From Lingula anatina (taxonomy: Eukaryota > Animalia > Brachiopoda): a DNA stretch of 64,000 bases. Below, one piece after another: positions 11,128 through 63,871 of the stretch (position 1 is the first letter of the stretch; each line of letters opens with the position of its first letter). The stretch lies in contig CM120640.1 of the NCBI GenBank assembly GCA_051362555.1, forward strand, positions 12,276,001-12,340,000. The letters are read 5' to 3'. Under the pieces are notes generated by a model, which saw only the letters and a program-made list of their open reading frames with translations, searched no databases and was not told the DNA's origin. A program made the translations under genes and the position numbers.

Positions 11128-14100
11128 TCAAATGGAGTCTAACACAAGCCAGTCTTCACTCTCCTCATCAAAACTGCACTCTCCTTGACTATCCGAAGTT
11201 GGTTCCGTTTTAACTGTCACTTGGCTAGGCACATCATTCACACTGGAGCTTGATGGCAAAGTTTGTGAAAGGAGAGAGAAGGCATCCAATGGCTCAGACT
11301 TGATCTTGATGGCACTAACCGTTTTTCCAGGATTTGACGATGGAGATTTCTCGAGAGATCCACGGTTCTGATCCTGTGACAAGTGATTACCACTCATGAC
11401 TGGTTGAGTATCCAAGGAACCAATGTCATCAAAGAGGTTGCGCTGGTTTTGCTTGGTCTTAGTAAACCCTGCACCAGTACTCTTTTTACAAACATTCTTG
11501 CCCTTGTTGGTTTTCTGTTTTGGTTGTGGTTTCTTGAACTTTAAAGAAACAGGAAACTTACTATGAAATGGTCTCTTCTTTGCAGTTGGCAGTTGCGTTC
11601 CTTTCGAGCTAACTGCAGACACTAAGGTCTCAATATCTTCCTCTCCATCTTCAAGCCCTTGCTCCTGTAAGAAGTCACCAATGGCATGCCCCACATCTAC
11701 TGAAAGACTTTCACAATCATCAGAGAGAGCAGGAGACCTGGACATGCTGTAGTCACCTTGTTCTGCATACTCCTGCATGCAGTCCTTGAGAACAACTTTT
11801 AGGTCAAAGGAACAATGCCCATTTTTTGGCCAATGAACAGTTGAAAAATGTTCAGAAAATGTAGTTTTGTCCATGGTGGCGTATGCGCATAAGTGGCAGC
11901 AATAATACAAATTGGTGACCTTGGGATTCCTTACGGCAATGTTTTCTTCTGCATCCTTTCCATAATGGTCCACCTCAATATGATGCTTGATTTTAGGCCT
12001 GAAATATAAGATAGAAAACGTACTTAATATGTGCAGTCTTGATTCAAAATGTCACTGCTCAAGGTTTTAAAATGGAGTCAATTTAGCACCAAATAACTTT
12101 GTGCAAAGCTTAACATAGTTAGATTTAGCATGTTAAAACATAAAATTAAAAAAAAATCAAATTGGATCTCTGCCTCTGCCAATATTTTATTTTGCTGAAA
12201 TCACACAATGTCTCACAGAAAGATGACCCATAAGAGAGCCCAGTTTACATTTATAGGACCAGGCTCATCATTAACCCAAAAATAAAAAAAAAAACAACAT
12301 ATGCAGTGCATCTTTAAGTTATTATTCAGAGATGGAGACTTCCCATTTAGTGAATAAGTCTGATAATTTGGCATGGGGTTCACACTTGCCCCCTTCCGTT
12401 TTTACTGCTGATCTGTATCGATCTAAAAAAATGATTCCCAAAAAGTCGGGAAATCAGCCAACAGTCACATGCATGAAAAAAAAAAAACTACTTCTTCAAT
12501 ATTAGATAAAACACCTACTTCTGTGAATTGACAATACCACAGATGCCACATAAGTATCTGCCTCCATAATGGACCCATGCATGATGTTTCATATGACCAA
12601 TTATCTGAGTGACATAACTGCATACTGTCAGTGGACAATGATACAGTCTCTCTGCTCCTTTTGGCGTGAAAGGTAACTCCATCTCATAACTAAAAAAAAA
12701 AAATGTTTTCTTGAAGAAACACCTTTGTATTTTTAACAGTCAGTATAATCTTAAAACTTAATAGCCTCATCTACTTACGGAGAATAAAATGAATGCATTT
12801 ACTGTGTGCAATGATTTACCAACATTTTTGTTTTTAACTAATTAATTTAACTCCTGTACCGCAAACTATTTTAAGAAATTTGACTTACTTATTAAGAGTG
12901 CATTTTTCCACTTGAGAATGGAAAGAGAGAGGTGGGGGTCTCTCAATGCCAGCTAATTCTTCTTTTTTGATTTTTGCCAGAGGAAGTAGGTGACCCTCAT
13001 CTTCAGGTCTTGGTCTTTTCCTCGACCCGTTGGGTACTCCAGTTGTCTTTTCTCTAACCAGACTTTTTGCCTTACTGTGCAAGTGGTCCACTTCCTCATC
13101 TAGTTTATTCTTCTTTGCTGGCGGTGATTCACTGCTGAAATTAACAGCTTGGTTCTCATCAAATGAGGGTGTCTTTGTCTGCTTATCTGGCTCACTTTCA
13201 ATGGCATGTGCTATATTGAGCATGGTCTGTACAGCAACCTTTCTTTTGGAGTCAGACGAGACTGACCTTGGAGTGGTTGCATTTTCCATAAATTCATCTA
13301 GCAAAGTTTCAAGGTCTTTCTTCTTCTGATACTTGATCAGTTTCTTGCGCCCAAAATGAGATTTTTCAAAATGCCGGTCTAGCATTCTTTCTGAGCTTGA
13401 TTCCCTGCTACAGTAGCCACATCTAACAGGGTTGTAATTCAGATGAGAGGACATGTAGTGGTGACGCAGGACGTCTAATCTTTTGACACTATAAGCGCAA
13501 ATTTGGCAAAAGAACTGCAACCTTGGACTTCCAACTTCAACCTCAATCTTTTTACCTTGTTTTATATGGTCGACCATTTTCTTCATATCAGCCTCCTTTT
13601 GCTTGTCTATGCAATATGTGTACTTTGATATTAATCCTTTATGCTTCTGTCTGAAATGTAGATGCATCAAAGGCCTGGTACAGGTTGTACAACTGCATAA
13701 AGCACACTTATATGGCTCATAACCCAGGTGAGATCTATTTACATGGAACTGCACATGGTCTGTCCTCATTCTAACAGGGCATTCTGTGCAGTAAAAATAA
13801 AGATGGGATTTGGGGGGTGGTTGCTTCGGTCTGACTCTTTTTTTCTTGGGTTTGTCATCTGAAGGCAAATCATCCACTGTACTTGCTGTACTAACTGATG
13901 CCCCTGTAGTGCTGGAGATCACTGTGCTGCTGTCATCTTCAGATGACTCTTCTGATGAATCCTCAGGTGTGTTGTCAAGTGCTGCTTGCTTGTTTAGAAG
14001 CTGGCTAGAAGTGTTGGAGGTGATCGTCTTCTTGGCAGCTACTACCCTAATGGCACAAGTGAGTTGTGGATGTATAGCCACCAGGTGTTCCTTCAGAATC

Positions 14101-17100
14101 CTGAACTTATCATGACGTTCATTGCAATATGCACACTGGTATGTAGCGCTTTTTCCATGACCAGCCCTATGAGCTTTTAGCTTGCTGCCTTTTCTGGTCT
14201 TGTATCCACACAACTTACAAACAAAGGGCTTGACGCCTAAAGGTAAGCCTAAAGTTGCTGAGGGAGATTTTGGCACCACTGCCCCCATTTTGCTTCCTTG
14301 ATAAGTGTTTGAATCCAACTTTTTACACCTATCTACTTCTTCCAAGACTTGCTTCCATTTAGAGGTATTCTTTTTTTCAATAACCACTGGGTCTTTGCCT
14401 TCATGGAACCTAGCAGCATGCTTTTCTGTGTTGCTCTTTGTGCAAAATTGTGTTTTACAAATCCCACAAGAGTAAGGTTTATAGCCAAAATGTTGCATAG
14501 TATGGGTCTTAAAATTCTCTCTTCTGGTAGTGCTGTGGTGGCAATGTCTGCAGACATAAGTATATAAACTAACCAATTTTTTGCTTTGTGTCTCTGTAAT
14601 ATTCCTTTTCACCAAGTCCTCTTTTTGCAGGTCTTGATCAAACACAAGAGTTCCCTTTCCATTGTGCTGTTTTTGAATATGGTTGTTCATGCCATTTGTT
14701 GTCTGACATCTATGGTCACATTCAGAGCACCTCATTGGATAATATGATAAATGCCTCATGACATGCCATCTTGCACGGTCAATTCTGGGAAAAGATTCCT
14801 TACAAAGACTGCAAACATACTGAGCACCCTTGCTATCATGGTTTTCTGTATCACTTTTGACACTGCTCACTTCAGAGCTGCTAGGTCTTCTTTGAGCTGG
14901 AATACTTGCACTTCTTGGGGAATTCTCTGGATGTATCTGCATGACATGCCGTCCTATAGAACTATGATACCCAGACTTGAAGTCACACAAAGGGCAATAA
15001 TACATTCCATCCTCATTACGAGTTACCTTTACTCCTGCCCTAGTCTCTCCTGCAGATGAAACACTTTGTTCTGTGAGATCTTTTAATTGAACTCCTTCTT
15101 TATTTGCTTTCTCACTTTTTTGGATGTTTTTTAGCTCATCTGCTAATTTTGAGAGAAGGGATGTCTTGACATATGAAATCTCTGTTGGCATCCCTGGGTG
15201 ATTTTCAGCGTGATGTTTATTAGCTGCTTCCAGAGTTCTTCCTCGGTAAGGACAATGTCCACAAGTGTAGGGTCTATGGTTGTAATGTATGTACTTGTGT
15301 TCTTTCATGTTTTTGGAATTCTTGGTAGTGTATGGGCACATAGAGCAATGAAGCACCTTCTCTGCTGATTTTTCCTCTTGACTTTGACTTAATGGTGCTG
15401 ATGATAAAGAGGGAGGCCCAACTGCAATATTATTTGTTGCCTTTATGTTTGCTTCAGGTTTAGAGGGTTCTACTAGCTGCTTAATTTTCAGTTCTTTTCC
15501 TTTGTGCATGTTAATGCTGTGGATTCTGATACTGTAGCGTGAAAATGCTTTGAAGCTACAATATCCACACTTGAAAGGACGAAAACTGCTATGTCGCTTG
15601 CAGTGTTTGTGTAGAGTGTCACGGCTGTTGAAAGTTTTGGAGCAAATTGGACAAGCATGCAAACTTCCAGGGCTTTTCTTCAATGTCTCTTTATGTGATG
15701 AAAGCAGAGCATCAATGTCCTCCCCTCTGGCAAGGCGTGGTTTTCCAGGTTCCTTCACCTTTGGGGTAAACTCTACTCCAACTTCACTGTCAGAGTTCCC
15801 AATAAAAGAATTGGACTTCACATCAGTATGAGCATTTTTACCATTATCAATTTCACACTGTCCTGTGATTTTCAAGAAACGTAGTGCTTTTCCACGATGC
15901 TTTGTCTTCATGTGCAATTTCAGCAATTTTAGCTGTCTCCTGGAGTAGCTACAAAACATGCATTTGTATGAAGTGTTCAACAAATTTGGGTGGGCCACCT
16001 TTAAATGACTTATTATTCTAACAATTCCTCTACTAGCTGGAGTGCTATAGCCACAAAGAAAACACTCAAAATTGTTAGATTGTTGTGACCTTTTGAACAG
16101 TGTTATGCCTTCATCTTCTCCTCCCTCCATATGGACCCTTCTTATGTGGTTTCGCATATATTCTTGCCTCTTTTCATATGGTAGTTTTCCCCCTGCAGCA
16201 GTGTGAGGGCAAAAAGGACAGCTTGCTGAAAACCATTCAACTCGGTTTGAACTTGAACCCTTATCATGAAATGACCTTTTATGTCTGGAAACAGTCCTGT
16301 TTGAAGGAGTGGTAAAGTCACAGTAGGAGCATGCCCAAATAACTTGCTCTTTCTTTTCTTCTGGAACTGATGACAGAGCCGCAGCTTCTTTGGGTCTTTT
16401 CTCTTTATAAAACCATTCAGATTTATCATTTCCTGTGTACTCCAGCACACTTTCATCATTTGAGTTGAAAGGTATGCTTCCAGAATTTGTTGCATTTGTA
16501 TGTTTTGGATTTGTTGTTTTAATTGATTTGTAAAATGTACTTCTATGAAATTTCATGTGATACCTCACAGACTGTTTTGAATCAAATATTGAATTGCATC
16601 GCTTGCATTTGTAAGAGACATCTTCATCTACAGTAGGTCCCACTTCACTTGTATTTGTTGAGGTTGTCAGTTTTTCTGCTATTTTGCCAAAATGCTTATT
16701 CAAGGTATGGCGATAGATATCTGCACTGCAGTAGACAGACGTGTAACTGCAGTACACACACTTGTATGCCCTCTGTGTTGGTGGCTGTTTAAGTGCAGGT
16801 TTCCCAGTCGGAGTAGATATCTTCTGTATCTTTGATGAATTTACTGTTGAGAAACTGTTTTTCTTCTGCCTTACACGATTTTGGCCCTTTTCAACAATGT
16901 ATAAAGACATTATATGTTCTGCTTGAATATGGTCCTGCATAAAAGCTCTGTCTTCTGTTGAAAAAAGGCACACCTGACATGTGAATTTGGTGTTCCCCAT
17001 TTCCTCATTTTCAGCCTCGATAGAGCCATCAGAAACAGCCTTTGAGGTGGTACAAGATCCTGCAACTCCCATCAAGAATGACATATGAATTTTCTGAGTG

Positions 17101-20100
17101 TGACGTATGACGTCCTGTCTTCCATAGAATGAATAGTAATCACAGTACATGCATCTGAATATTCTGCAACCAGGACTAGAACCACCTTGGTGGGCTTTCA
17201 ATCGACTTCCCTTGGAGGGTGAAGTAGCACCTTTTAATGGTGAAGTAGTGCCTTTAGTGGGTGAAGTACCTGCCAGTGAAACGTTACCCCTTTTGTTATG
17301 TTCCACTGCATAGAAAGATTGAAGGTGGTTATCTTTGAGGTGCAGATACATTTTGTCTTCATTTTCTGAGACATAATCGCAAATCTGGCACTTAAATTTG
17401 GTTGTAGAGTGAGAAACTTCATCATTCTTGTCCGCATTTTCTACCTTCACTTTGCATTCAACCTCAGGGGAAATGCTTCTCATCAAGAAGTCAACATGGT
17501 GCTTGATTGAGTGACGAAGGACATCTATTCTTCCATACATGGACTGATATTCACAATATAAACATCTAAAAATCTTTTTCCCCTTGTGTGCACTTGGTGA
17601 TGCCTGTCCATGTTTTGACACCTCTGAAGACGATATTCTAGTAGACATCTGATCAACTTCCATAAGGTTTGAAGGTTGATCCTGTGTCTCACTTTCAACA
17701 TTGTCATTGGTGGAAAGTGAATCATCCAATGCTTCCGTCTTTTGAGTATCATCACTTCTTGTAGAATTTACTGCCGTCAGTTGCTGTGTATCAACAATCT
17801 CATACAGTGTTGGGATGTGGTAAGTGGTGATATGTGTTCTCATAAGTATTGGAGCCTTTGTGGAATAATTACAAATGGTGCAAACAGGAATCTTGTCTTT
17901 CTGCTCTTTTACCATTGTATTTTTTCTTTCAACATCACTAGGTGAATTGGTAAGCATTGAATCAATCTGAGGAAACCCCATTAAGGCATACATGTGCTTA
18001 CTACGTACATGTCTCATGGTGTTGTGTCTATGATCACTTTTATAGTCACAGTATAGGCATTTTGTAATTTTCCCTTTCCAAAATCCTGGACTAAATGCCT
18101 TAGCACCTGAACTTGGTGAGAAACATTCTGGTTGTTCAAGTATTGCTTGTGTTTCACTACAGTCATTAGTAGCAGCATTTAATTCTACACTAGCATCAGA
18201 ATTAGGCTGAGCATCAGCTTTCAATTCCACACTTGCATCAGAATTAGGGGCAGCTTCAGCTTGTAATTGCATACTTGCATCAGAATTGGGTGCAGCACCA
18301 GCTTTTTGTCCATCTGATATCAGAGATAAATTGAACAAGGGAGAAATGTTTGTTTCTCCCTTAAATTGAGTGGATGATACTAGATCCTGAAGATGTGTGG
18401 TAATGTGTTTTTTTATAGATGCTATGGATTGTGAAGAAAATTGGCACAAACGACACATTCTCTTCTCATCTTTATATCCATTCTCTTCATTCAGACAGGT
18501 TGCACCTGGACCTACTGTCTTAATGTTCATATCCTTTGGTGACCCAGCACTGTTTGGTGAATTTTCCTTTGCAAACTCAGCCAAGTTAACAGTTTCTTCA
18601 TTACTCCCCACTATGTTCCCATTCTCTGTAGGTGTAACAACTGCATCTAGTTGCATAGAAATATTTGGAGCTACTGGCTGGTCCATGGTTTCAAGAGGTG
18701 TGCTGTGCTTGCTTATTTTTCCACCATATGTTTTACTACCTAAACCCATCAAATACTGCATGTGTTGTGTTTTTGTATGTTTAATGACATCACTCTTGGT
18801 ATGTCTCGTCTTGTATGCACAAAACATGCAATAAAACATTGCTGGGGAGACAGCTTCTCTGTCATCATGGAACTTTGGCTTGCTGGCACTCTTTGGGGAT
18901 TTATTCCGTCTTGGGGATAATTCTAGGCGTGCTTTGGGCATATGGCTTACCAAATCTCTGGCAGATATATCTTTACCAGGAGACTTTGAAATATACTCAA
19001 TTTTATACATTGAGGGTAGATGCTTCTCCAAGTGGCTTTGTACTGAAGACTTAGATGACGAGGCATAGCCACAAATCTGACATGTTGGAATATTTTCTAT
19101 TGCAGCAGTGGATTCAGCTTCTAAAGTATGGTACCCTATATCCATGGCAGTTGAGCTACATTCTGTTTGCTTTTGTTGAGAATTTTCTTCAACTGCTGTT
19201 ACATCTTTGGAAATTGTTGGGGTTACCCCCAAGGGTTGTTTGAAGCCTCCAGTATTTGTTTCAACTGGATTGTTCTCAACTTCTTTTTGTTCACCAAGTT
19301 CAACTGCTGTACTAATCAGCTTATCAACAAGCTCACTAATTGTTTCCTCTTTCTCACTGATGACACTGGTTTGAGTGCTGTCCAATTTAACATCTGGAAT
19401 TTCAGCTGTTGCTTTTTTCATCTCAACACTGGGCATATTTGCATTGCCTTCCTCATGTAAAGCCTGCCCATTAGCTGGCATCTCTGCCTCTGCACCAACT
19501 GAGTTTATGTTGGAAGTATATACTGTATAATTTGGATCTTCAGCACTCCCTGACTGTATTGTATCCCTTTTGCCTTGCCCAGAGACCAACTGTGACCTTT
19601 GTTCTTTATCATCTTGCTGTATTGGAACCTCAGCTATTTTACTACTGTCAAGATACGTATGATCAGACAACTCATCCAGTACAGCATCTATGCTTGTTTC
19701 TTTGCCTAAATTTGTTTCAGGGACTTTTGCATTGGTACTCACAGTCTGACTGTTACCATCTGCTGTTGTAGCTTGTAATTCTTTTGCAAAAGTATTAGAT
19801 GGCAAATCATCTGCACCCGTGTCAGAGGTGCATTTTGCTAATTTTCCAACATTGCTTTCTTCATCTTTTTTAGACAACTCCATAGAGCCCAGATCTGGTG
19901 CATCTGATGTATCTATTACCAACTTGCTAGAATATAACTCATTGTACTCAACATCAGCATCTGCATCCTTGCTGGCTTTTGTTAAATCTTTTGCTAAATC
20001 TGGTATGGAAGCCAAGGTGCTTTGTGGGGATTTGTTGATTTGGGCTTCTTCACTCTGTATAACTTGTTGAGCTTCTAATTTTGCTTCATCTCCAATACTG

Positions 20101-23100
20101 TCAGCAACAGGTCCTTTGTTCTGTTCAACGGTCTCTTGTACTGTGACTTCATTGTTTGTAGAATCATCCATGATGCTTTCAGTTTGATTTGTTACTTTGG
20201 AGAAATCTACTTCACCTGAGCAGTTTTCATCATTGCCTGGATCATTTCTTTTACCTGCCTCTTCCTTTTGCTGCTGGACTTCTTCGTTGGTGTCATCTGG
20301 TTTATGTTCTAAACCCATCAGTAAATCAAGGTGCCAAGTGCGGGTATGGCGCAACACGTGTGCCCTGTTGTAAAAGGAATAATAATCACAATAAAGGCAA
20401 CGGTAAATTTTCACCTGTCGTACTGTCACATTTTCTCCTTTACTCTTTGTAGTGTATGTTCCTCCTGCATAATTCTGTAAGGATTCAAGTATGTTTTCAT
20501 TCTCTCTCCACTGTTCAAGATCCTGTGGCTCTGCCTTGATTTTAATAAGTGAGTCTTTGATCACAAATTCTGGAACTGAAGTGGACTGGTCTTTCAAAGG
20601 GCTAGGTGTTTGATTTGCATCGGTGTCATTCTCATTTATTGATGTCAATGCTGATGATTGTAGGTCATCGCCAGACAGTTCTGCAGCACTTGTTTCTTTG
20701 GTATTGTCAGTAAAAGGTGACTCCGAACTTGTAGCTACATTTTCATTTCCTAAGAAAGAGTTAGTTTTTATTTCAGTCTGATCATCTGATGGCAGGGCAC
20801 TGCTGACAGGTTCAGGTAATCCTGCTGAATGCGGCTGAGTCTCTGTTTGGGTCACACTGGGGCTTCTTGACACACTTTCAGTTTCTGAAGCACCCCTTGT
20901 TTCTGCTACAATTTTGAACACCTGTCCTTTAACAACTTCTTTGACATTCACCCTGATTGTGAGAGGGGGTTTGTCTTTATGATATTTCTGCATGTGCTGC
21001 AGCAACATAAACTTCTCTGCATGGCTCCACTTGCAGTAACCACACATGAAGGGTTTTATCTTGTAATGAATAGTGAGTACATGGCGTTTCATAGCTGTGA
21101 TATATTCAGACTGGTAGCTACACAGATCACACTGGAGAAGGTAAGGTTCTACTCTTTTGAAACCACAGTGTACAGAATCTGATGCCAAAAACTCTACTTG
21201 AGGCTGTGATTTTTCAGGCTGCAATGCATCTTCACCAACTGTTACCTCATAACCTTGCAATACTTTGACAGGTTGGCCTACATGGACATTTTCTGAATGT
21301 TTTGCTACATCCTCCTTAGTGTTGCTGTGAAATCTGCAGTGTAAACACTTGAACTGGATTAATCCCTTTGACTCAGTGTTAGACTCATCATCTGTAAATC
21401 GAAAGATTTTACAGCCTTTGGTAGGATGCTGGTTCTTGCAGTGTCTGGCAACTTTAGCCCCTTCAGCAGAGCTGTACTCGCAATGCATACAATGATATGG
21501 TTTTAAGCCAGCATGTACATAATTAAAATGCCTCCTCATTTTATCTGGCCTTCTGTTTTGAAATTCACAGAGGAGACACTGGTACAAGTCTTTATCTACC
21601 AGTTTCCAATTCTCCTGTTCTTTTCCTTTCTCTTCGGTCTGACTGAGGCTTGCTGTTGGTTGGGAATCATCTTTTATTTCACAATTTTCATTATCTTCAT
21701 TGCATACAGACACAACTTGCAATGAACCCGTTTTTCCATCTTTAGTTGGTATTACCCAATGTCCATTTGAGTTTTTCTCCATTTGATGAGCTTTCTTGAA
21801 ATGACGCAAAAGATTGTAGCGCACTTTACTTCTAAACTCACACATTGGGCAAGCAATTTGCATTTTGAAAACACTTTCCTGTGGCACGCAGAATACTTCT
21901 CCGCTACTTGTTGTGTGATCTTTTGTACCTACAGTAGGAAGTCCTTCATTTGAAGATGAAATGGGAAGTGGCTTTTCATGCACTGGTTTTTGGGCAGCTG
22001 GTGGTCTTTCTAGAAACTCTTGGTGATTCCCTTTGAAATGATTGGTCAGCATGCCTTTGCTCTGATAATCCACATGAATGTTACACCTCATACAGCGATA
22101 AAGACTGCCAGCCTCTTCACAACTACTGTAGTGAAAACCATATTCTGGTTTCTGAATGCCATGAGTATAAGAGAGATGAGAAAACAACACTGGCTGAGCA
22201 CGTGTTTTATAGTGCTCGCATTCATGGCACTGATATACAGTTCTCTTGACACAAATGGTTACATAATCCTGGTTTTCTATCAACCTCTCTTGGTCTTTTG
22301 TAATATTTGATTTTGTCTTCTTCTGGCTAGTTCTTGATGTGTTGTGTTTAACCATGTGCTGCTTCAATAAATCTTTGGAGGTAGCACTAAATGAACAGAT
22401 CTCACAGTGATATTTGTCAATGACAGATATTCCAGACTCCTGTAGAAGCGCTTCCATCTCTGATGCCTGGCTGCTTCCATCTGGATCCATCCCAGTTTTC
22501 TGACTGCTTGGTGAATGTCCAATAAATAGTGGGCTTGAACCTATTGTTACAACACCAGTGGGATGCTGTTTTTTAATGTGTCTTTCAATTAGCTCTTTTT
22601 GAGTTGAGCTATATCGGCAGGACTTACAAGCATACATTGTAATGAATGGCTTGCTTCCATCAACAAATTTGTGCTGTGACATATGACGTCTGAAGCCCTT
22701 GATAAGATCAGTGTTGAAAAGACAAAGTGGGCACAGAAAGCGTTGACAATTTGACAAAAATTCTTTAGAAACATCAGCTTCCAATACACGTGAACCACGC
22801 GATGCCATCTCTTTTACAGTTGGCCTAGGATCTTGATTTATGCCTCCTGAGGACACCCCCCGAGGTGCTGGGGGAGTACCAACATTTGTGCTGGAGCTTG
22901 TACTGACTGGCTTTGAATTGAACAGCCTCTTGACAACTTCATATCTCACCTCATCAGCAGGGTGCAAATTGTCAAAATGGTGGTCTAAGATTATTTCATG
23001 GTTAGCTTGGAAACTGCACACCTGGCAAACATATATTCGTATTCTGATGTTCATTTGATCTGGATGCAATGCACTCATGTGAGATTTAAAAGATTCTTGA

Positions 23101-26100
23101 GAGTTTGCCCCATACATGCAGAGAGTACAAATAAAGCTCTTTGTTGCATGCATGTCTTCATGAGAGCTTAAAATGCTTTGACTAGAGCATTTAAAAGGGC
23201 AATGCTGGCATTTCAAATTTTTTTCAGCTTCTACAGCATTTGGGGTACTATCCATTCCAGCATCATTTTTCATGGTCTTCTCCACCTTTTCTTTCTGTTC
23301 CTTCATAACTTCTGCTTGTGGAGGTTTGTATTTCAATATTTTGGGTCTTTTCTGAATACAGGAGATAAATGTGCTCACAACTATCTTCCTAGCTTCTGCA
23401 GGGTGTTCAGTGCTAATGTGTGTGATCAATGTCTTCTTACTTTGTGATACCAATTTGCAGTAAGGGCATTCAATCAATTTTACAGTGCTGGCAGTAAGGT
23501 GGTTGACTAGATCTTCCAAAGTGTTAAACTCCATCTTGCAGTAATAACAACTGGCAGACATATTGGGGTGCTGACTGTTGCAGTGTGCTTTGTATGCTAC
23601 CACAGAATCAGAACCAAACTTACACCCTGGGAAAGAACACTGGTAGAGACGCTTGGTCATTCTCTTCATGTGCTGCTTCATGTGAGTGATGATCTTATCA
23701 TCTGTATCACATGTGGTGTCACAATAGGCACAAGGATACAAGTTGCTGGAGTGCTTGATTCTCAGGTGCATTTTGAAGCCATCTACATCATCTGTGAAGA
23801 AAGCACATTGGGTGAACCCACACTGGTAGAAACCAAGTGTGTTATGTGAGGAAACTTTCTCAGTTGTAGTAGCTGGTCTCCCTGAAGTCATGCCACTGGA
23901 CTTCCCTGAAATAAGCTGGACAAAGTTACTATCTCCATAGCCCTGCATTTCTCTTTCAGCTCTTTTCATTATTCTTGGGCCCTTATCCAAGTCTGGTGGT
24001 GTTTCAAGCAGTCCTTGGGAAATCTTACTATTTTGAAATAATTCACGCAAACTTTGGCACTGGTTAGTTGAATCATGTGAAACTACATCTATATGTTCCT
24101 CAACCAGGTCAGGCAACCCATTCTCTTCACTATTAGTTGTTTCTTTATCCCACTGTTGCTGATGGCTCAAATCTGTTGCTGAACCCAATATCGGAGTCTG
24201 TATAGTGTCTGAATCTGTCAGCTCATTCTGTTCTGCTTTGCTTCCAAAATCTGCCCCATTCAAACTGTAAGTGGCAGCTATGATGGGCAGGCCATCATTA
24301 TTTTCCTTTTGGGGTGATGGTGTGACAATTGTGGTCTCACTGACTGGCTGAGACTCTGTGTGTAACCCACTGTCTGTTACTGAAGAAACATCCCTACCAC
24401 TGGTTACAACTACTTCCGTACTTGGTGGAATTGCTTCAACTTCCTTGCTGGATGTCTGTTGATCATTTTTTTGCCTTTCAACCTCAGAATCCACTTGAAA
24501 GGGAACCAAAATGGAAAAATCTTAGCATTTTTTGTAACAGAAATGAAGAGTTTAGTTTTGGGATATCCTTTTAAAAAACTTATAACCAAAATACATGGTA
24601 TTATCTACTGGAGGGCCAATTAAATATTATTTTTAAAAAAATATATATTTACCATACTTTGTGGTTTCTTAATAACTGATTAGGACAAAAATTAAAATAT
24701 TTGTTCCCAATTGTCATATTACTGGCATGCTCGCACACAGAAGGGCTTTATGTCATATTACCGATTTTTCTAGACAGGTATAAAATTTTATTGTTAATCA
24801 TAAGGATACTAAATATGTTTCATCTCTGAACAATAATTAATGGTCTTTGTGACATTAAAAATAAATAAATAAACAAGTCATCAGAATCATTTACTTGAAA
24901 CTGAAACGCTTCAGAGAATACTTGTATCAAATGTCATGTATTTTTATCTTCTATTAATTAAAAAAAAAAAATGAAAAATTCAAAATACCTTCAGCTATAA
25001 CAAGTCTCCCTTCTTCCTCATCACTGTCCACTGACAGGTCAATTGCAACTGGCTCTGACGTATCTGGTAAAACACACATATGTACAGGTAAATAATCAAT
25101 ATTGCCGCATTCAACCAATCCAAACTGTCACATGGTAAAACAAAGCCAAGTTACATTTATTAATTTATCTTGTTATTTGCAGCAAGTTAAGAAATAAATA
25201 GGACCAGGGGCCCTGAAGGTGACAGTACATAAAGGTTAAGGGCAGGAAATGTTTATGATGTAATTATGGTATTATAAGAGTGATGGAAGAAGGAAAAATC
25301 AGATGAAGATCAAATCCATAACATATGCTGCTGTTTAGAAGCACAGGACAATAAATGTGCCTGATACTATACTTTTAGGTAAAAAATCAATCAATCATTT
25401 TGGGGAATAAAAATCCACCAGATAAGTAATGGTTACCCACAGATCTCTTCTTAACAAATGTACCATCTTTAGATCCCAAATCAAAGCTGTTAGTTTTTGG
25501 TTTTACCATGCTGTTTATTCATCATCAAAATAGGATTCAGTGGGTTAAAAGAGCCTTTCATTGGTAAAAATGTTCTTTCTTTGCTTTGAAAAGATTCACA
25601 TCTTACTAAAGAAAGTTGGATGAGAAGTGAGCATTAGGGTGTGCAAGTAAGACAGGATAAAATGACTCATATACTTTTTATTAGAAGACACTTTAAAAGG
25701 ACTACTCAGAGCCATGCTAATGCTGTCAAGCAAATAGGATATAATAGGAATCACAAATGAAGTGAGGTATTGAACATGTAGATCAAGGACAAGACCCAAT
25801 AAAAATCAACAAGGAACAAAGTAGTCCGATTTTCCATGCAAGCATCTCCCACTGTGAAAGAAATATCTGCCTTTACCCAAGCCATGGTCAAGCTTATACC
25901 TTTCTAGCTCTACCCAGTATGTCACAGTTAATCTATGTTTTTTAAATTTAAGTAGATAGCTAAATTTTCCTCCTGCATATATATGTGTATATATATAAAT
26001 ATATATATATATATGCCAAGTGAACCAAAAAATTTCAAAAACAGCTTTGATGCTACACATACCTGCTATGCCAGAGTTCTGCTTTCCAGTTACTGTTTTG

Positions 26101-46830: not shown

Positions 46831-49029
46831 CATATAAGGCTTTGCAAAAACATTTGAAAAAGAGGCCATCCTTTTGCAGTATTTGCACTTCCCTTCGATA
46901 ACATTCATTCCTCATGTATCATTCTGAAAATAGAGCATACTTTTATATAGTACTCACACTTTTCTGTACTGAAATATTATTATTATTATTATTTCAAAAT
47001 GGCAAATTTATAAATGTATGCAATGTGTGTCATATTGAAGGCCCACCCTAATTAATTTTTATAAACAACATTCAAAAACTCACCTGGTGAACAGTTTGAA
47101 CCATCCTGGTGTTTTATTTCAGATCTGAGTCATGACAGGCAATAACCTATTTTTCCCAAATTTTCTTCCTCCAGGGTGGGAATTAATCTCATTTTATCTT
47201 GTAGGTTTAAAATTGGACACATTCTACTTTCTCTGAAAATGTTTATTGACCACTTGGCACCATGTTGAGGTTTTTGAAGGATTCTGCTGGCTGTTTCTTG
47301 CAAATGTCAATTGATAAATAGTGTGCACAAAGTGCAGTTCCTCTGCATATAGTTTCTGTGCTGTTATTTCAAGAAGCTGAGAAACCACATTTTTCCATTG
47401 TCCTCTGTTAACAATGGAATATCCCCCTTTGAATATATGCAGCTTTTCCCAAAAGACAGATGCCCTATGGGTGCAAAATATGCAAAATAAGTTGTCAAAA
47501 ACTAGTTCTGGTCAAGATCATAACTGAAGTTCAAGTGTTAGAAGGGTGTTTTGCTCACCAGTGGTTATAATTAGGGGTGAAGAGCTGTGGGATTAGTCAT
47601 CATCTGCATCTGCTTTTTCCACAAACGGCTTTACTACTTTATGGAGGCTATTTTAGTTCTCTTTGCTCTGGCAGGGATGGTCCAGTGTGATATATGTGTA
47701 TGGCAAGAATTGTCTAATATTTATCAAATGCCAGTTTGAAAAGACAGAAAAGTGGTTTCTGCAGATGAATGAACAGTCCTCCTGTTGCCAGCAGGCAGGG
47801 ATTTGTGAAATCAACTAAGTTTTCCTATTGTTCATTAGAAAATTTGCCTTGTTACGTAATGGTTTATTATACGATTCTTACTGGCCATTTGGTCATGGAA
47901 GAATTGCCATTTCACATACATTCTGCTTGCAACCTGTCTTTTTTTTTCTTGCAAGGGGTCCTCTGAATTTGCATCATTTGCAAAAATCTCTGATTTGGAT
48001 CTCACACTTTCCTAAAGAGGTGCAATGTTGAAGAATTTGTTATTGTTTCTTATATGGATTCTTTGAGGTCTAAAAGTCCACAAGAAAAGTAGAGGGAGTC
48101 AAACACAGGATAGGAACACTTTTTTTCACCCCACTACTTGTTGGGAAAAGTATAGTCAAATCAGATGGTGCTTTTCACACAGGTAATAGAACAGCGAGTT
48201 TCCTGGGACCATCGAAACTGGGGTTAGGATGGACACTCAAGTAAGGGTTTGTAATAGTATTTGGTTGTTCTGCCAGTATATATGGTAATGGATGCCTTGC
48301 ATCTTTAGCTTCCTAAACTAAAAAGGTCATATAAGAACATTCTGTGTAACAATGAAATGGGAATGTGAGATGGCATTTATTATACATTACAACAAAAGTG
48401 TATAAAAGACCAAAACAACTGAGAGGTCATTTCAAGTTGGTGATGGGCATATTTTCTGTTATATTTCCTTCTGTTACATAAATTACTGTTAATTTATTTC
48501 CTTATTAAAGGTGCTATTGGATAAATCTGCAAAATAAATATAAGGGCAAATGGGAGTCATGCAAATATTACTCAAACTGTGTATCACTAACTTGACACGT
48601 GTTCACTATTTTAATGGAATGCCCCCAGAACAGGTTCCACTGTGACAATCATATGACCTAGCTTATGTTACCCTCTATGCTAACAGTATATGTTATTTCC
48701 AAGCCCATTATTATGACCAGTATGAAAAGAATTGCAACAATGGGAACCTGAAGATTACTACTGATCCACACATTTTAAACTGGTGTGATCTGTGAAATTG
48801 GGTATATAGGCATGGAAAAAAACTTGCATGATCCATTTAAAGGGTGTCAAAATCACTTCAACTAAAGCAAGATTAATTGAAGGTAAATGTTTCCGCAGAT
48901 TTCTTTTACAGTGGGTTGTCATTAATACATGTAGATTAATATCTTCCAAAATAAAGAAATGTGTATTTGCCAAGCCCTGCTATAGCAAAGAATATTGTCT
49001 TTTTTTTTTTTTTCTTAAACTTTCTCAGA

Positions 49030-52000
49030 ATGTCAGGGAAGATGGTGTCCACAGGGACTGTCCAGGTGGACAAGTTGTTGGAAAAGTTGGGTCAACCAGG
49101 TCGGTACCATGTTTTCATCTACATTCTCATCTGTATGACCTACTGGATTGTGATCTTCAACCACGTTATCATGGCAGTCTATGGGCGGCCACCACCCCAC
49201 CACTGCACCCTTCCAGAGGGGAACTTTGTGAACAGAAGCATTCCCCTTGAAAAGGGAAAGCCCAGCAGCTGCAAGGTGTATGAAAATTTCACCCAGGTTT
49301 ATGGAAATGAAACAGTTCCAACACAAGGTTGCTCAGATGGATGGACATACACCCTAGAGCCTGGAGAAACCAATTTTGTTGCAGATGTAGGTTACTGTTC
49401 TTATTCTGTGTAAAAATATAAATATCAAATAAATGAATATGAACATTATTATTTCTTATATTTATTATTAAACTTTTCTGTTAAAGTACTAAAAAAAGAG
49501 ATAAGTTCTTGAAAATATTTTTTCGTTGTTAAATTGAGCAAATGTTTTGTAAATTTTAGTTTGATCTGGTGTGTGATAACAAGCCCCTGGTCAGTTTGGC
49601 AACAACCATCTACTTCTGTGGGGTTATGCTGGGAGGACTTATATTTGGTACCCTCTCGGACTTCATTGGCAGAAAGCCAGTATTCCTGATAACCCTGTTT
49701 GTCCCAGTTGCAATTGGAGTTGGGATATTCTTTGTGCAGTCATATGTGGCTTTTGTGGTGCTGAGGTTTTTTGTGGGAGTTTGTATGCAGGTAAAATATA
49801 AGTTTGACATGGGTTAATTTTTTAGTATTGTAATAATAGCAGTGTTTGAAACTAGAATGTACCCAATGTAGAGTCGGAGGGCTCAATTTGGCCCCTTGCA
49901 TCCTGAACCTTCCATGTTCTCATAAACAACAAAGCCCAAAGTAACCAAATTATGGTATCCAATTACATTCTCTCTCTCCCTGAACCAATACAATGTCATA
50001 CACCCCATTTCCATAGATTAGATCGACCTACTTTAGATCGACCTAACTCCCTGGGTGTTCACGCTGAATAGCTGTCAGCCGGGCGGACATGAAAGTTAAT
50101 TATCCCCTTACAGCTTGTGGTAGGCGGGACAGACATTTAAGTCGGATTATCTGAAAATAATCTAGTGAGACTCCCCGCGGGGATAGATCGATCTAAAATC
50201 TATGGGAATAGAGCCATAGTCAGCTGATTTAGCTGTCATTATATATGTACCTGGACAAAAGAAGTCTAGAAAACTGCACTTCATACTACAATAAAAAAGG
50301 ATAAGAATAGATTAAAATGGGACAAGAATACACATCATCTCTCACTAAATCTCTGCATCATATGGTTTCATGGCACTCAAGCAATATACTTCTTTCATTA
50401 GGGACTCCAAACATCAGGACTTGTGTTAATTTTGGAAATGTTCCGTCCAGTCCATCGTACCAAGGCAGGCCTTATTACAGAGCTGTTCTGGGGTTCTGGG
50501 GTGCTAATAGTAGGAGTTCTTCAGTGCTTTATCAAGGACTGGCATTATATCCAACTGGCCATTGCTCTTCCACCTGTGCTAGCCATTGGATATATTTGGT
50601 AATGATTTTCAGTTAGTGATAGTTGTTAGTTACTATCTTCCAAATAGATACATAATCATTAAATATTTGTGGTAGATTTGGTATTGATACTTCATTTAAT
50701 ATAGGGTTTTCTCAGTTATATGTTTTAATTATTTCAGTTTATTTATTGCTGTGGTGAAGTTCCTGAAAATAAAAGTTTCCATTAGTAGTGACCTTCAATG
50801 TTAAATTACCACTAGTATTGATCCATGGGATTCTAGGTTTCTATTGAAGTAAAGTACATTGGTTTCACACAATCTTTGTTTTCTGTTCATGATTATTCGG
50901 CTTGAATAAGAATACCATTAAGTGACTTTCCTAGTTTTCTATAGATACTGTTCAGGTATTATTTGTATTGTAGAATACAGGTCTATTTAAACCCTTTGTT
51001 TTGCATTCCACAGGATTATACCAGAATCCCCAAGGTGGCTGATTCAGAAGAAGAAATTCAAATTAGCAGAGCAATTTTTCATTAAAGTTGCAAATTTCAA
51101 TAAAACCGACATCACCTCCTCAATTAGTGATGAATTTGCTGCTGTCCACAAAAAAGAGGATGGGTCTAGTGTGACACACTACACCATCTTGGATATGTTC
51201 AAGACTCCAAAGCTCAGGAAGCGTACATTCTTATTGTTTTATATCTGGTATGAATTTTGCTTTTGTTTTTACAGAAGTGAGCATCTGTAAATAATTGTTT
51301 TTAGTATTAGACGCAAAGGTAGAATCCTTCATTTATTTCATCATGGTTGTGTAAGTGCAACGAGTAACATTATGTCAGGCCATATCTGTATTCATTGTTA
51401 TCATTTTATCTTATCTGGTGTTTGCTTAGGTTGTCAATTGCAGTGAACTATTATGGAATGTTATACGGCATTTCTGCATTACCAGGCAACTACTGTCTTA
51501 ACTTCTTGATCGGTGGTTTTGTTGAGGTACCTGCATATATAGCTACCATATTTTTAGTTGAATGGTAAGTATTATTGGTTTAGAGAGTCAAATAACTTGT
51601 ATTAAGAAATGTTTAAAGTCTCTTTTAGGCCTTTTTGAATTCTTTTAATCTTAAAGTCTTTTCATGCTGTTCTGTATGGTTTATATCATGGATGAACTAA
51701 TTACCATTTCTTTGTCTTTAGTTTTGGTCGCAAGAAGATATTACTGTTGTTCTTCTTTGTTGGTGGTGTGACATGTATAGCAGTTAGACTGGTACCTTCT
51801 GTTACAGGTAAATAGTCAAACAATGTTTGTCAAATATTTTTGAGCCTGAAAGCATAGCTTTAGTAATAAACGTGAAAATATTGGGGCAAATATTTAAAAA
51901 GATGTCCTATTGTTTCTTATTGAATATTTATTTTCACTGTGAATTATTTGTAAACTATCTAGTACATATGTTGTGGCAGTCTCATATTTGCCTTTGTCCA

Positions 52001-56056: not shown

Positions 56057-63871
<7,815 letters not shown>

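Follow-up and report, generated by a model that had tools for sequence, protein, structure and literature searches.

Six repeats of a predicted strand-swapped double zinc finger in a giant C2H2 protein of Lingula anatina

LOC106171239 of the brachiopod Lingula anatina encodes a giant zinc-finger protein in which a unit of two fingers, termed A and B, occurs six times. The unit was found in a 64,000-nt stretch of genomic DNA (the window; GenBank assembly GCA_051362555.1, contig CM120640.1, forward-strand positions 12,276,001–12,340,000), and positions given below are those of the window. An intact A-B unit is probably a strand-swapped double finger that acts as an intramolecular clasp, as judged from a structure model of one of the copies. 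Its two fingers would together form a single compact double zinc finger with roughly two-fold pseudo-symmetry. The helix of each finger would extend four residues beyond the last His, and each tail strand likely completes the β-sheet of the other finger. The clasp would loop out 28 to 416 residues of acidic, likely disordered chain.

Widely spaced C2H2 fingers are usually taken as independent beads. If the clasp is real, a single domain can be made of two fingers that lie hundreds of residues from each other and can be recognised by a short hydrophobic tail, and the annotation of giant invertebrate zinc-finger proteins changes. The few finger-finger interfaces solved so far would also gain a type that is C-terminal, swapped and formed by a hetero-pair. 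As to scope, the unit has been found in one genus.

The six A and six B fingers

The array lies in a stop-to-stop open reading frame (ORF) of 3878 aa on the minus strand (12885..24521), which holds the ~11.6-kb exon of LOC106171239; all array positions below are on this strand. An earlier note on this DNA, made from the sequence letters, quoted six A peptides, and all are present exactly in this ORF. The fingers alternate strictly from A1 to B6. The first Cys of A1–A6 is at aa 1375, 1898, 2155, 2320, 2457 and 2588 of P0001, and that of B1–B6 at aa 1814, 2023, 2214, 2378, 2515 and 2639. There is no further CxxC between A1 and B6, save an overlapping CxxxxC reading at A5.

In unit 1, A1 with its tail (20313..20411; C-x2-C-x13-H-x4-H, tail HLDLLMG) and B1 (18996..19094; tail HLPSMYKIE) are both intact. 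The spacer between them (19095..20312) is 406 aa from tail to strand, or 416 from His to Cys, has no CxxC and is covered by polyA reads. In unit 2, A2 (18744..18842; 13 spacing, tail HMQYLMG) is followed by B2 (18369..18467), whose tail is decayed. Unit 3 consists of A3 (17976..18071; 12 spacing, tail HMYALMG) and B3 (17793..17894; tail HIPTLYEIV). Unit 4, which was modelled, consists of A4 (17478..17576; 13 spacing, tail HVDFLMR) and B4 (17301..17402; tail HLQSFYAVE). In unit 5, A5 (17067..17165; 13 spacing, tail HMSFLMG) is followed by B5 (16890..16991; tail HIMSLYIVE). A6 (16674..16772; 13 spacing) has no LMG tail, and in B6 (16521..16619) the B type is not recognisable.

From the last His of A to the first Cys of B the distances in units 1–6 are 416, 102, 37, 35, 35 and 28 residues, in line with the variable spacer of up to about 400 aa that had been noticed earlier. 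The gaps from each B to the next A are 63, 111, 84, 57 and 51 residues. All six A-B spacers are negatively charged, the A1-B1 spacer having a net charge of −50.

All four ligands (two Cys, two His) are kept in each of the 12 fingers, and A and B are predicted to be zinc-binding fingers of the C2H2 type. The C-x2-C-x13-H-x4-H spacing is found in five of the six A fingers, as the earlier note had it; A3 and all B fingers have 12 residues. The 13-residue spacing is rare elsewhere: 28 of 3462 fingers (0.8%) in 149 other proteins retrieved by the same profile.

The A fingers resemble one another far more than other fingers do: the mean A-A alignment score is 77.7, and the 36 remaining fingers of the ORF score 30.0 with each other. 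This score was reached by none of 100,000 random sets of six drawn from the 48 fingers. The B-B mean is weaker (46.6, reached by 140 of 100,000 sets). Both sets were chosen by eye, so that these counts flatter both. In leave-one-out profile searches among about 3379 fingers, A1–A6 rank 1, 2, 4, 1, 1 and 16, and B1–B6 rank 1, 130, 3, 2, 1 and 1564; B6 resembles the B type no better than fingers do on average. From these ranks, units 1, 3, 4 and 5 are intact, the B finger of unit 2 is decayed and both tails of unit 6 are lost. Thus the B form that the earlier note placed after every A holds for B1, B3, B4 and B5, but not for B2 or B6. Its LMG ending is likewise present in four of the six A tails, replaced by LMR in A4 and lost in A6. 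The tail patterns derived from the copies match 5/6 A and 4/6 B fingers, none of the 31 other listed fingers of the ORF and none of 3341 fingers of other proteins.

Several further positions are hydrophobic. Cys1+1 is hydrophobic in all six A fingers (background 7% of 3291 fingers), as is His1−2 (background 23% of the same fingers). In the tails the comparison is with 1643 free fingers: His2+1 is hydrophobic in five or six of six in both A and B (background 21–26%), His2+4 in 6/6 A and 6/6 B (26%), and His2+5 in 5/6 A and 6/6 B (21%). On the A helix, position 6 is Arg or Lys in all six copies and position 3 is Asp in four of six, and the helix face of B shows no conservation. B may therefore be mainly a structural lid, with the A helix left free to bind DNA or a partner. 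That the ligand of the A helix is DNA is possible, if somewhat doubtful.

The fingers are under constraint and the spacers are not. Among the differences seen in other individuals, 8/8 in fingers or tails are silent and 21/32 outside alter a residue (Fisher p 0.001). These counts are from 40 listed of 187 differences, and two codons hold two differences each.

Two linkers between units contain short tandem copies. The B2-A3 linker (18173-18305, minus) has three tandem 42-nt copies, 78–82% alike and each encoding 14 aa, which appear to be a recent intra-exonic expansion. The basic B4-A5 linker (17209-17271, minus) has three tandem 21-nt copies encoding S-P-x-K motifs, which we take to be possible kinase sites.

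Predicted structure of unit 4

AlphaFold2 was run on unit 4 (97 residues) with an alignment of eight rows taken from the repeats in the window itself. The five models have predicted local distance difference test (pLDDT) values of 76.5–80.3, the best mean being 80.3, and the predicted template modelling score (pTM) is 0.61, a high value for a chain with low confidence in about 25 of its 97 residues. The pLDDT is 86–92 in the fingers and tails, 73 in the block with the A tail and the start of the spacer, and 50–57 in the spacer, which has no secondary structure in the model. A single-sequence model of units 3–6 was uninformative (pLDDT 32).

Both fingers of the unit 4 model display a hairpin and a helix. 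A has a helix at 18–33 and a strand at 34–37; B has helices at 75–85 and 87–90 and a strand at 91–95. Thus A and B have the same ending in the model, a helix to His2+4 and a strand from His2+5.

The geometry was deduced from the pTM and from the ranges of rigid structural alignments. AFV1p06 (2lvh) aligns with 43 of its 45 residues at 1.6 Å over model positions 1–96. The sheet strands of AFV1p06 are at 8–13, 19–20 and 45–50 (PMC3541406). The B finger alone offers too few residues for such a match, so that the residue count calls for the A finger with the B tail as third strand. Kaiso residues 547–590 likewise match the A finger and the B tail (42 residues, 2.2–2.4 Å, model 2–97). The reverse is seen with 7q4o_1, a 41-residue chain of which 40 residues align at 1.7 Å over 31–91; a match over this range needs the A tail and the B finger. 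The unit 4 model is thus predicted to contain a reciprocal swap of tail strands between A and B.

A contact of this type is likely in units 3 and 5, which also have short spacers. In unit 1, where it would span 416 residues, it is still more likely than not.

The A-B pair as the repeated unit

When A(i) is matched with B(i), the similarities among the A copies run parallel to those among the B copies (Mantel test, Spearman 0.77; 2/720 permutations). The agreement is also found with units 1–5 only (1/120 permutations), and it is still 0.73 (2/720) after per-copy divergence is removed. The per-copy divergences of A and B correlate at 0.92. No correlation is found between B(i) and A(i+1) (−0.29, 96/120 permutations; residual −0.87). 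Since the co-divergence is present in the first pairing and absent in the second, A-then-B is the repeated unit, and this includes unit 1 with its 416 residues. The earlier suggestion that A and B form one repeated unit in one exon is borne out by this congruent divergence and by the exon mapping. The co-divergence demonstrates shared history and not contact.

The spacers show no mutual similarity (eight spacers compared; highest z 1.0 over 28 pairs). Repeats between units at the DNA level are short and 64–78% alike; therefore the inter-unit duplications are old.

Comparison with known finger systems and families

Strand-mediated pairing of fingers has a solved precedent in the IMZF, or CGxPhi-type, C2H2 fingers of Diptera (PDB 9VCD), in which isolated fingers pair via an extra β-strand (PMC12774644). 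According to that paper, these fingers form homo- and heterodimers between chains, the DNA-reading positions lie outside the dimer interface, and finger-finger interfaces are termed largely unexplored (PMC12774644). Its survey, whose table covers 27 proteomes, examined just the 20 residues preceding a finger (PMC12774644).

The likeness to A/B is that an extra strand beside the core fold joins two fingers, which for A/B is predicted in one model without a control. In IMZF the strand is N-terminal, belongs to the sheet of its own finger, carries the CGxPhi motif and forms a symmetric two-chain dimer. The A/B strand, in contrast, is C-terminal and is predicted on the other finger, and the pair consists of two different fingers of one chain, repeated six-fold. 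The 20 residues that precede each A or B finger contain no CG dipeptide. Chain A of 9vcd aligns on the unit 4 model with Z 2.5 and 3.4 Å over 54 residues. The A/B unit would thus work like the IMZF strand-mediated dimer, by analogy and not as a member.

AFV1p06 (2LVH; PMC3541406) and Kaiso 547–590 likewise consist of a finger and a C-terminal third strand along the hairpin. There the extension comes through a loop from the finger's own chain, whereas in A/B the partner finger is predicted to supply it. The third strand of AFV1p06 is described as lying away from the face on which DNA was docked (PMC3541406).

No A or B finger has a Trp between its Cys pair (0/12), unlike tCWCH2 fingers. In tCWCH2 of Zic, Gli and Zap1 the two Cys of each finger enclose a Trp, and the linkers of Zap1, Ikaros and tCWCH2 are short. 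The A/B unit is presumably similar to the long-linker fingers of ZNF512 as well, on which no paper was found. Zap1 fingers 1–2 and the Ikaros dimerisation domain are similar in that two fingers of one chain are one unit, and the Zap1 fingers contact through helices (PMC12774644).

Every Pfam family stays below its cut-off on the units scanned, units 1 and 2 having been scanned as halves and within long pieces. PF12756 (zf-C2H2_2) scores 21.9, 17.2 and 23.3 bits on units 3, 5 and 6 (cut-off 26.9), with profile positions 1–76 of 100 aligned; on unit 4 it gives no match at E-values up to 1. It passes, with 35.1 bits, only when three stretches of a 1294-aa piece are summed, and with the whole ORF the family is not listed. 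PF12756, whose members we take to include Rei1, ZNF622 and ZNF277, also has two fingers about 25–35 residues apart. It has a conserved structured segment between them, whereas the A-B spacers, of 18–406 aa, have no mutual similarity and the one in the unit 4 model is unstructured. No solved member of PF12756 is among the structural matches listed.

Of the ZNF462 finger families, PF23225 gives 26.8 bits on unit 4 and on the whole ORF, near the line of its cut-off (27). PF23224 gives 16.7 (cut-off 25) on A1, and PF23075 gives 16.9 (cut-off 27). With Foldseek the unit 4 model has no match at E-values up to 0.001 in PDB or BFVD. The best PDB structural match with VIA is ARS2 (6f7j_B; Z 5.7, 3.9 Å over 60 residues), below the level that the tool considers meaningful; weak fold matches do not prove a new fold. 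Sequence searches of PDB yield only generic fingers, e.g. CTCF. In the literature covered, mostly open-access papers, no description of this unit or protein was found. The earlier idea of an undescribed repeat domain is retained in that single units stay below the cut-off of every Pfam family, but the A core is found in relatives and the pairing has its precedent in IMZF.

Alternative explanations

A different and fairly improbable explanation is that A and B are independent C2H2 fingers whose tails fold on their own finger or bind a protein, and that the alternation results from duplication of a two-finger block in the exon. Block duplication alone gives the observed co-divergence of A(i) and B(i). 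A His-Pro-x-x-x-hydrophobic tail is found at the end of many other fingers, both in the Lingula protein and in relatives, a self-folding tail strand has been solved in AFV1p06 (PMC3541406), and 416 residues would be a long spacer within an obligate fold. However, the model sets each tail on the other finger with a pLDDT near 90 and the pTM noted above, and the four extra helix residues would leave too little chain for turning back. In addition, A retains its extra hydrophobic surface residues, and A6 and B6 have decayed jointly. The same interface might instead form between units or between molecules, so that the array is a multivalent zipper that oligomerises the protein. One hydrophobic pattern is common to all intact A tails and another to all intact B tails, the 15-fold range of loop length indicates that pairing is not dictated by closeness in the chain, and IMZF-type fingers dimerise between chains (PMC12774644). 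The 28–37-residue spacers of units 3–6 favour the nearest partner, however, and cognate-pair similarity persists when per-copy divergence is removed; this arrangement is quite improbable. Still more so, and hardly credible, is an offset pairing of B(i) with A(i+1) that leaves A1 and B6 unpaired. The B-to-A gaps are more even (51–111 residues) and the decay of B6 is as expected of an orphan, but the similarities of B(i) and A(i+1) do not correlate, and A1, which would be the other orphan, is among the best-kept copies.

The intramolecular clasp remains the preferred reading, and several points weigh against it. The modelling is based on unit 4 with its 35-residue spacer, on one model and without a control pairing; A-B contacts were deduced from the pTM and the alignment ranges, not from predicted aligned error or coordinates; and AlphaFold can bring two hydrophobic tails together when a construct is small. 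Decay has affected B2, B6 and the tail of A6. The co-divergence may stem from duplication history without contact, and the six copies have common ancestry, so that the hydrophobic counts are not independent. Silent-only change is expected in any functional finger, and the counts of differences rest on the listed fraction. The Asp at helix position 3 could cap the helix instead of contacting a base. No protein with the tails has been found outside Lingula, hence there is no covariation across species, and only for A is there support that an insertion opened up a tandem pair. Of the composite fold with a disordered loop that the earlier note proposed, the fold and a low-confidence loop are predicted in unit 4; in units 2 and 6, where B is decayed, such packing is doubtful.

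A further-reaching form of the clasp is less likely than not. In it the two fingers would be the halves of a naturally split domain, which pair obligately as a heterodimer, each with its cognate partner, across up to 416 residues of acidic disordered chain and through six co-evolved, pair-specific interfaces. Pairing in cis would then determine how the chain loops, and exchange in trans would link the protein into polymers. If true, C2H2 fingers would have a new means of shaping a giant disordered protein, and the halves, at 35–40 residues each, could be a source of small orthogonal heterodimer tags.

Relatives and origin

Upstream of A1 are two ordinary finger pairs, each linked by 7 residues, with one single finger between them (20946..21590, minus). 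Collinear counterparts occur in P0025 and in Lineus LOC135501493, and the two pairs fix the position of A1 in the relatives. An N-terminal block is common to the Lingula protein, Argopecten XP_069136052.1 and Lineus LOC135501493; the Argopecten protein, apparently P0096, shows 37% identity over 163 aa. The collinear alignment with P0025 begins at residue 1418, takes in two finger pairs and extends up to A1. P0025, P0099 and P0096 have collinear finger blocks, 7-residue-linked pairs and a trailing hydrophobic tail. The relatives in Lineus and Argopecten, P0025 and P0116 are giant paired-finger proteins of Bilateria, ZNF462/ZNF142-like by Pfam.

In the place of A1 the relatives have 13-spaced A-core fingers, three in P0025 and one in P0116. 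Unlike A, each has a second finger attached by a 7-residue linker, and they lack the A/B tail patterns. They rank 1, 2, 4 and 11 of 193 under the A profile, and their second fingers rank 48–179 of 193 under the B profile. Because of the A-core ranks, A appears to descend from the first finger of an ordinary pair. Thus the A core with its 13-residue spacing is no novelty, being already present in collinear relatives. A candidate origin of B as the displaced second finger of the ancestral pair is unsupported by the ranks of the second fingers.

There is no A-B array in the Lineus and Argopecten proteins. A HMMER search gave 7005 hits at E-values up to 0.001, which were multi-finger proteins as far as listed; among the best 150 of these, which do not include single-unit proteins below 81 bits, no A/B tails are found outside the Lingula protein. 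The array therefore appears to be lineage-restricted, as it is found only in Lingula among these best 150 matches. Word-based homologue searches, which are weak evidence, yielded only the Lingula protein with aa 2140–2680 (1 of 2524 candidates), and no positive with the unit alignment (0/3336) or with units 4–5 (0/397). The array may have originated by duplication of the A-B unit within the exon of an older paired-finger protein.

The B tails (His-hydrophobic-x-Ser-hydrophobic-Tyr-x-Ile/Val) resemble the 6-residue linker of the relatives together with the first strand of the next finger. In a comparison with P0096 residues 2707–2734, the Ile/Val is at the expected Cys position. The B tail strand may be a remnant of a lost finger.

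Outside Lingula, the best matches to the B profile are P0007 and P0120, which have repeated isolated fingers with a His-Leu-Gln-Pro-Leu tail. P0103 from the krill Meganyctiphanes (CAL4130113.1) has at 265–490 four evenly spaced, 13-spaced A-like fingers with hydrophobic tails and no partner fingers between them. This appears to be an independent expansion of the A finger type.

Gene locus and expression

The longer isoform of LOC106171239 was mapped on the window as six coding exons from 28314 to 11131. One exon (~11.6 kb, about 24495-12891, minus) contains the whole A/B array. The isoforms have 4758 and 4768 aa, and residues 2140–2680 of the ORF are identical (100%) to LOC106171239.

Stranded polyA RNA reads are on the expected strand across the array, and reads of one RNA run are present in 29 of 30 bins between 16400 and 20500. 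No splice joint across the array is listed in three RNA runs, at low depth. From the read coverage and the lack of a listed joint, the long A1-B1 spacer is present in the mRNA; that it is spliced out was considered and is not favoured by these runs. RefSeq isoform X2 is without 10 residues of the A2-B2 spacer (18510-18539, minus) that are present in X1; no RNA splice joint is listed there, at a depth below 5 per run.

Isoform X1 displays a PxDLS-like motif and five SUMO-type motifs, at residues 533–540, 1872, 2902, 4395, 4711 and 4741, by what we take to be the consensus of each. These motifs suggest corepressor recruitment. The host protein is likely a nuclear chromatin-regulating scaffold, which the motifs would fit.

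Sequencing runs X10 and X18 have the same species label and differ by about 4% from the window at 16400-19729, X10 with 133 differences over 3330 bases; many differences are common to both runs. This suggests that they come from a divergent population or a cryptic species. Elsewhere in the window, exons at 57678-62742 (minus) are presumably PRPF8-like, and those at 48955-49413 (plus) presumably SLC22-transporter-like.

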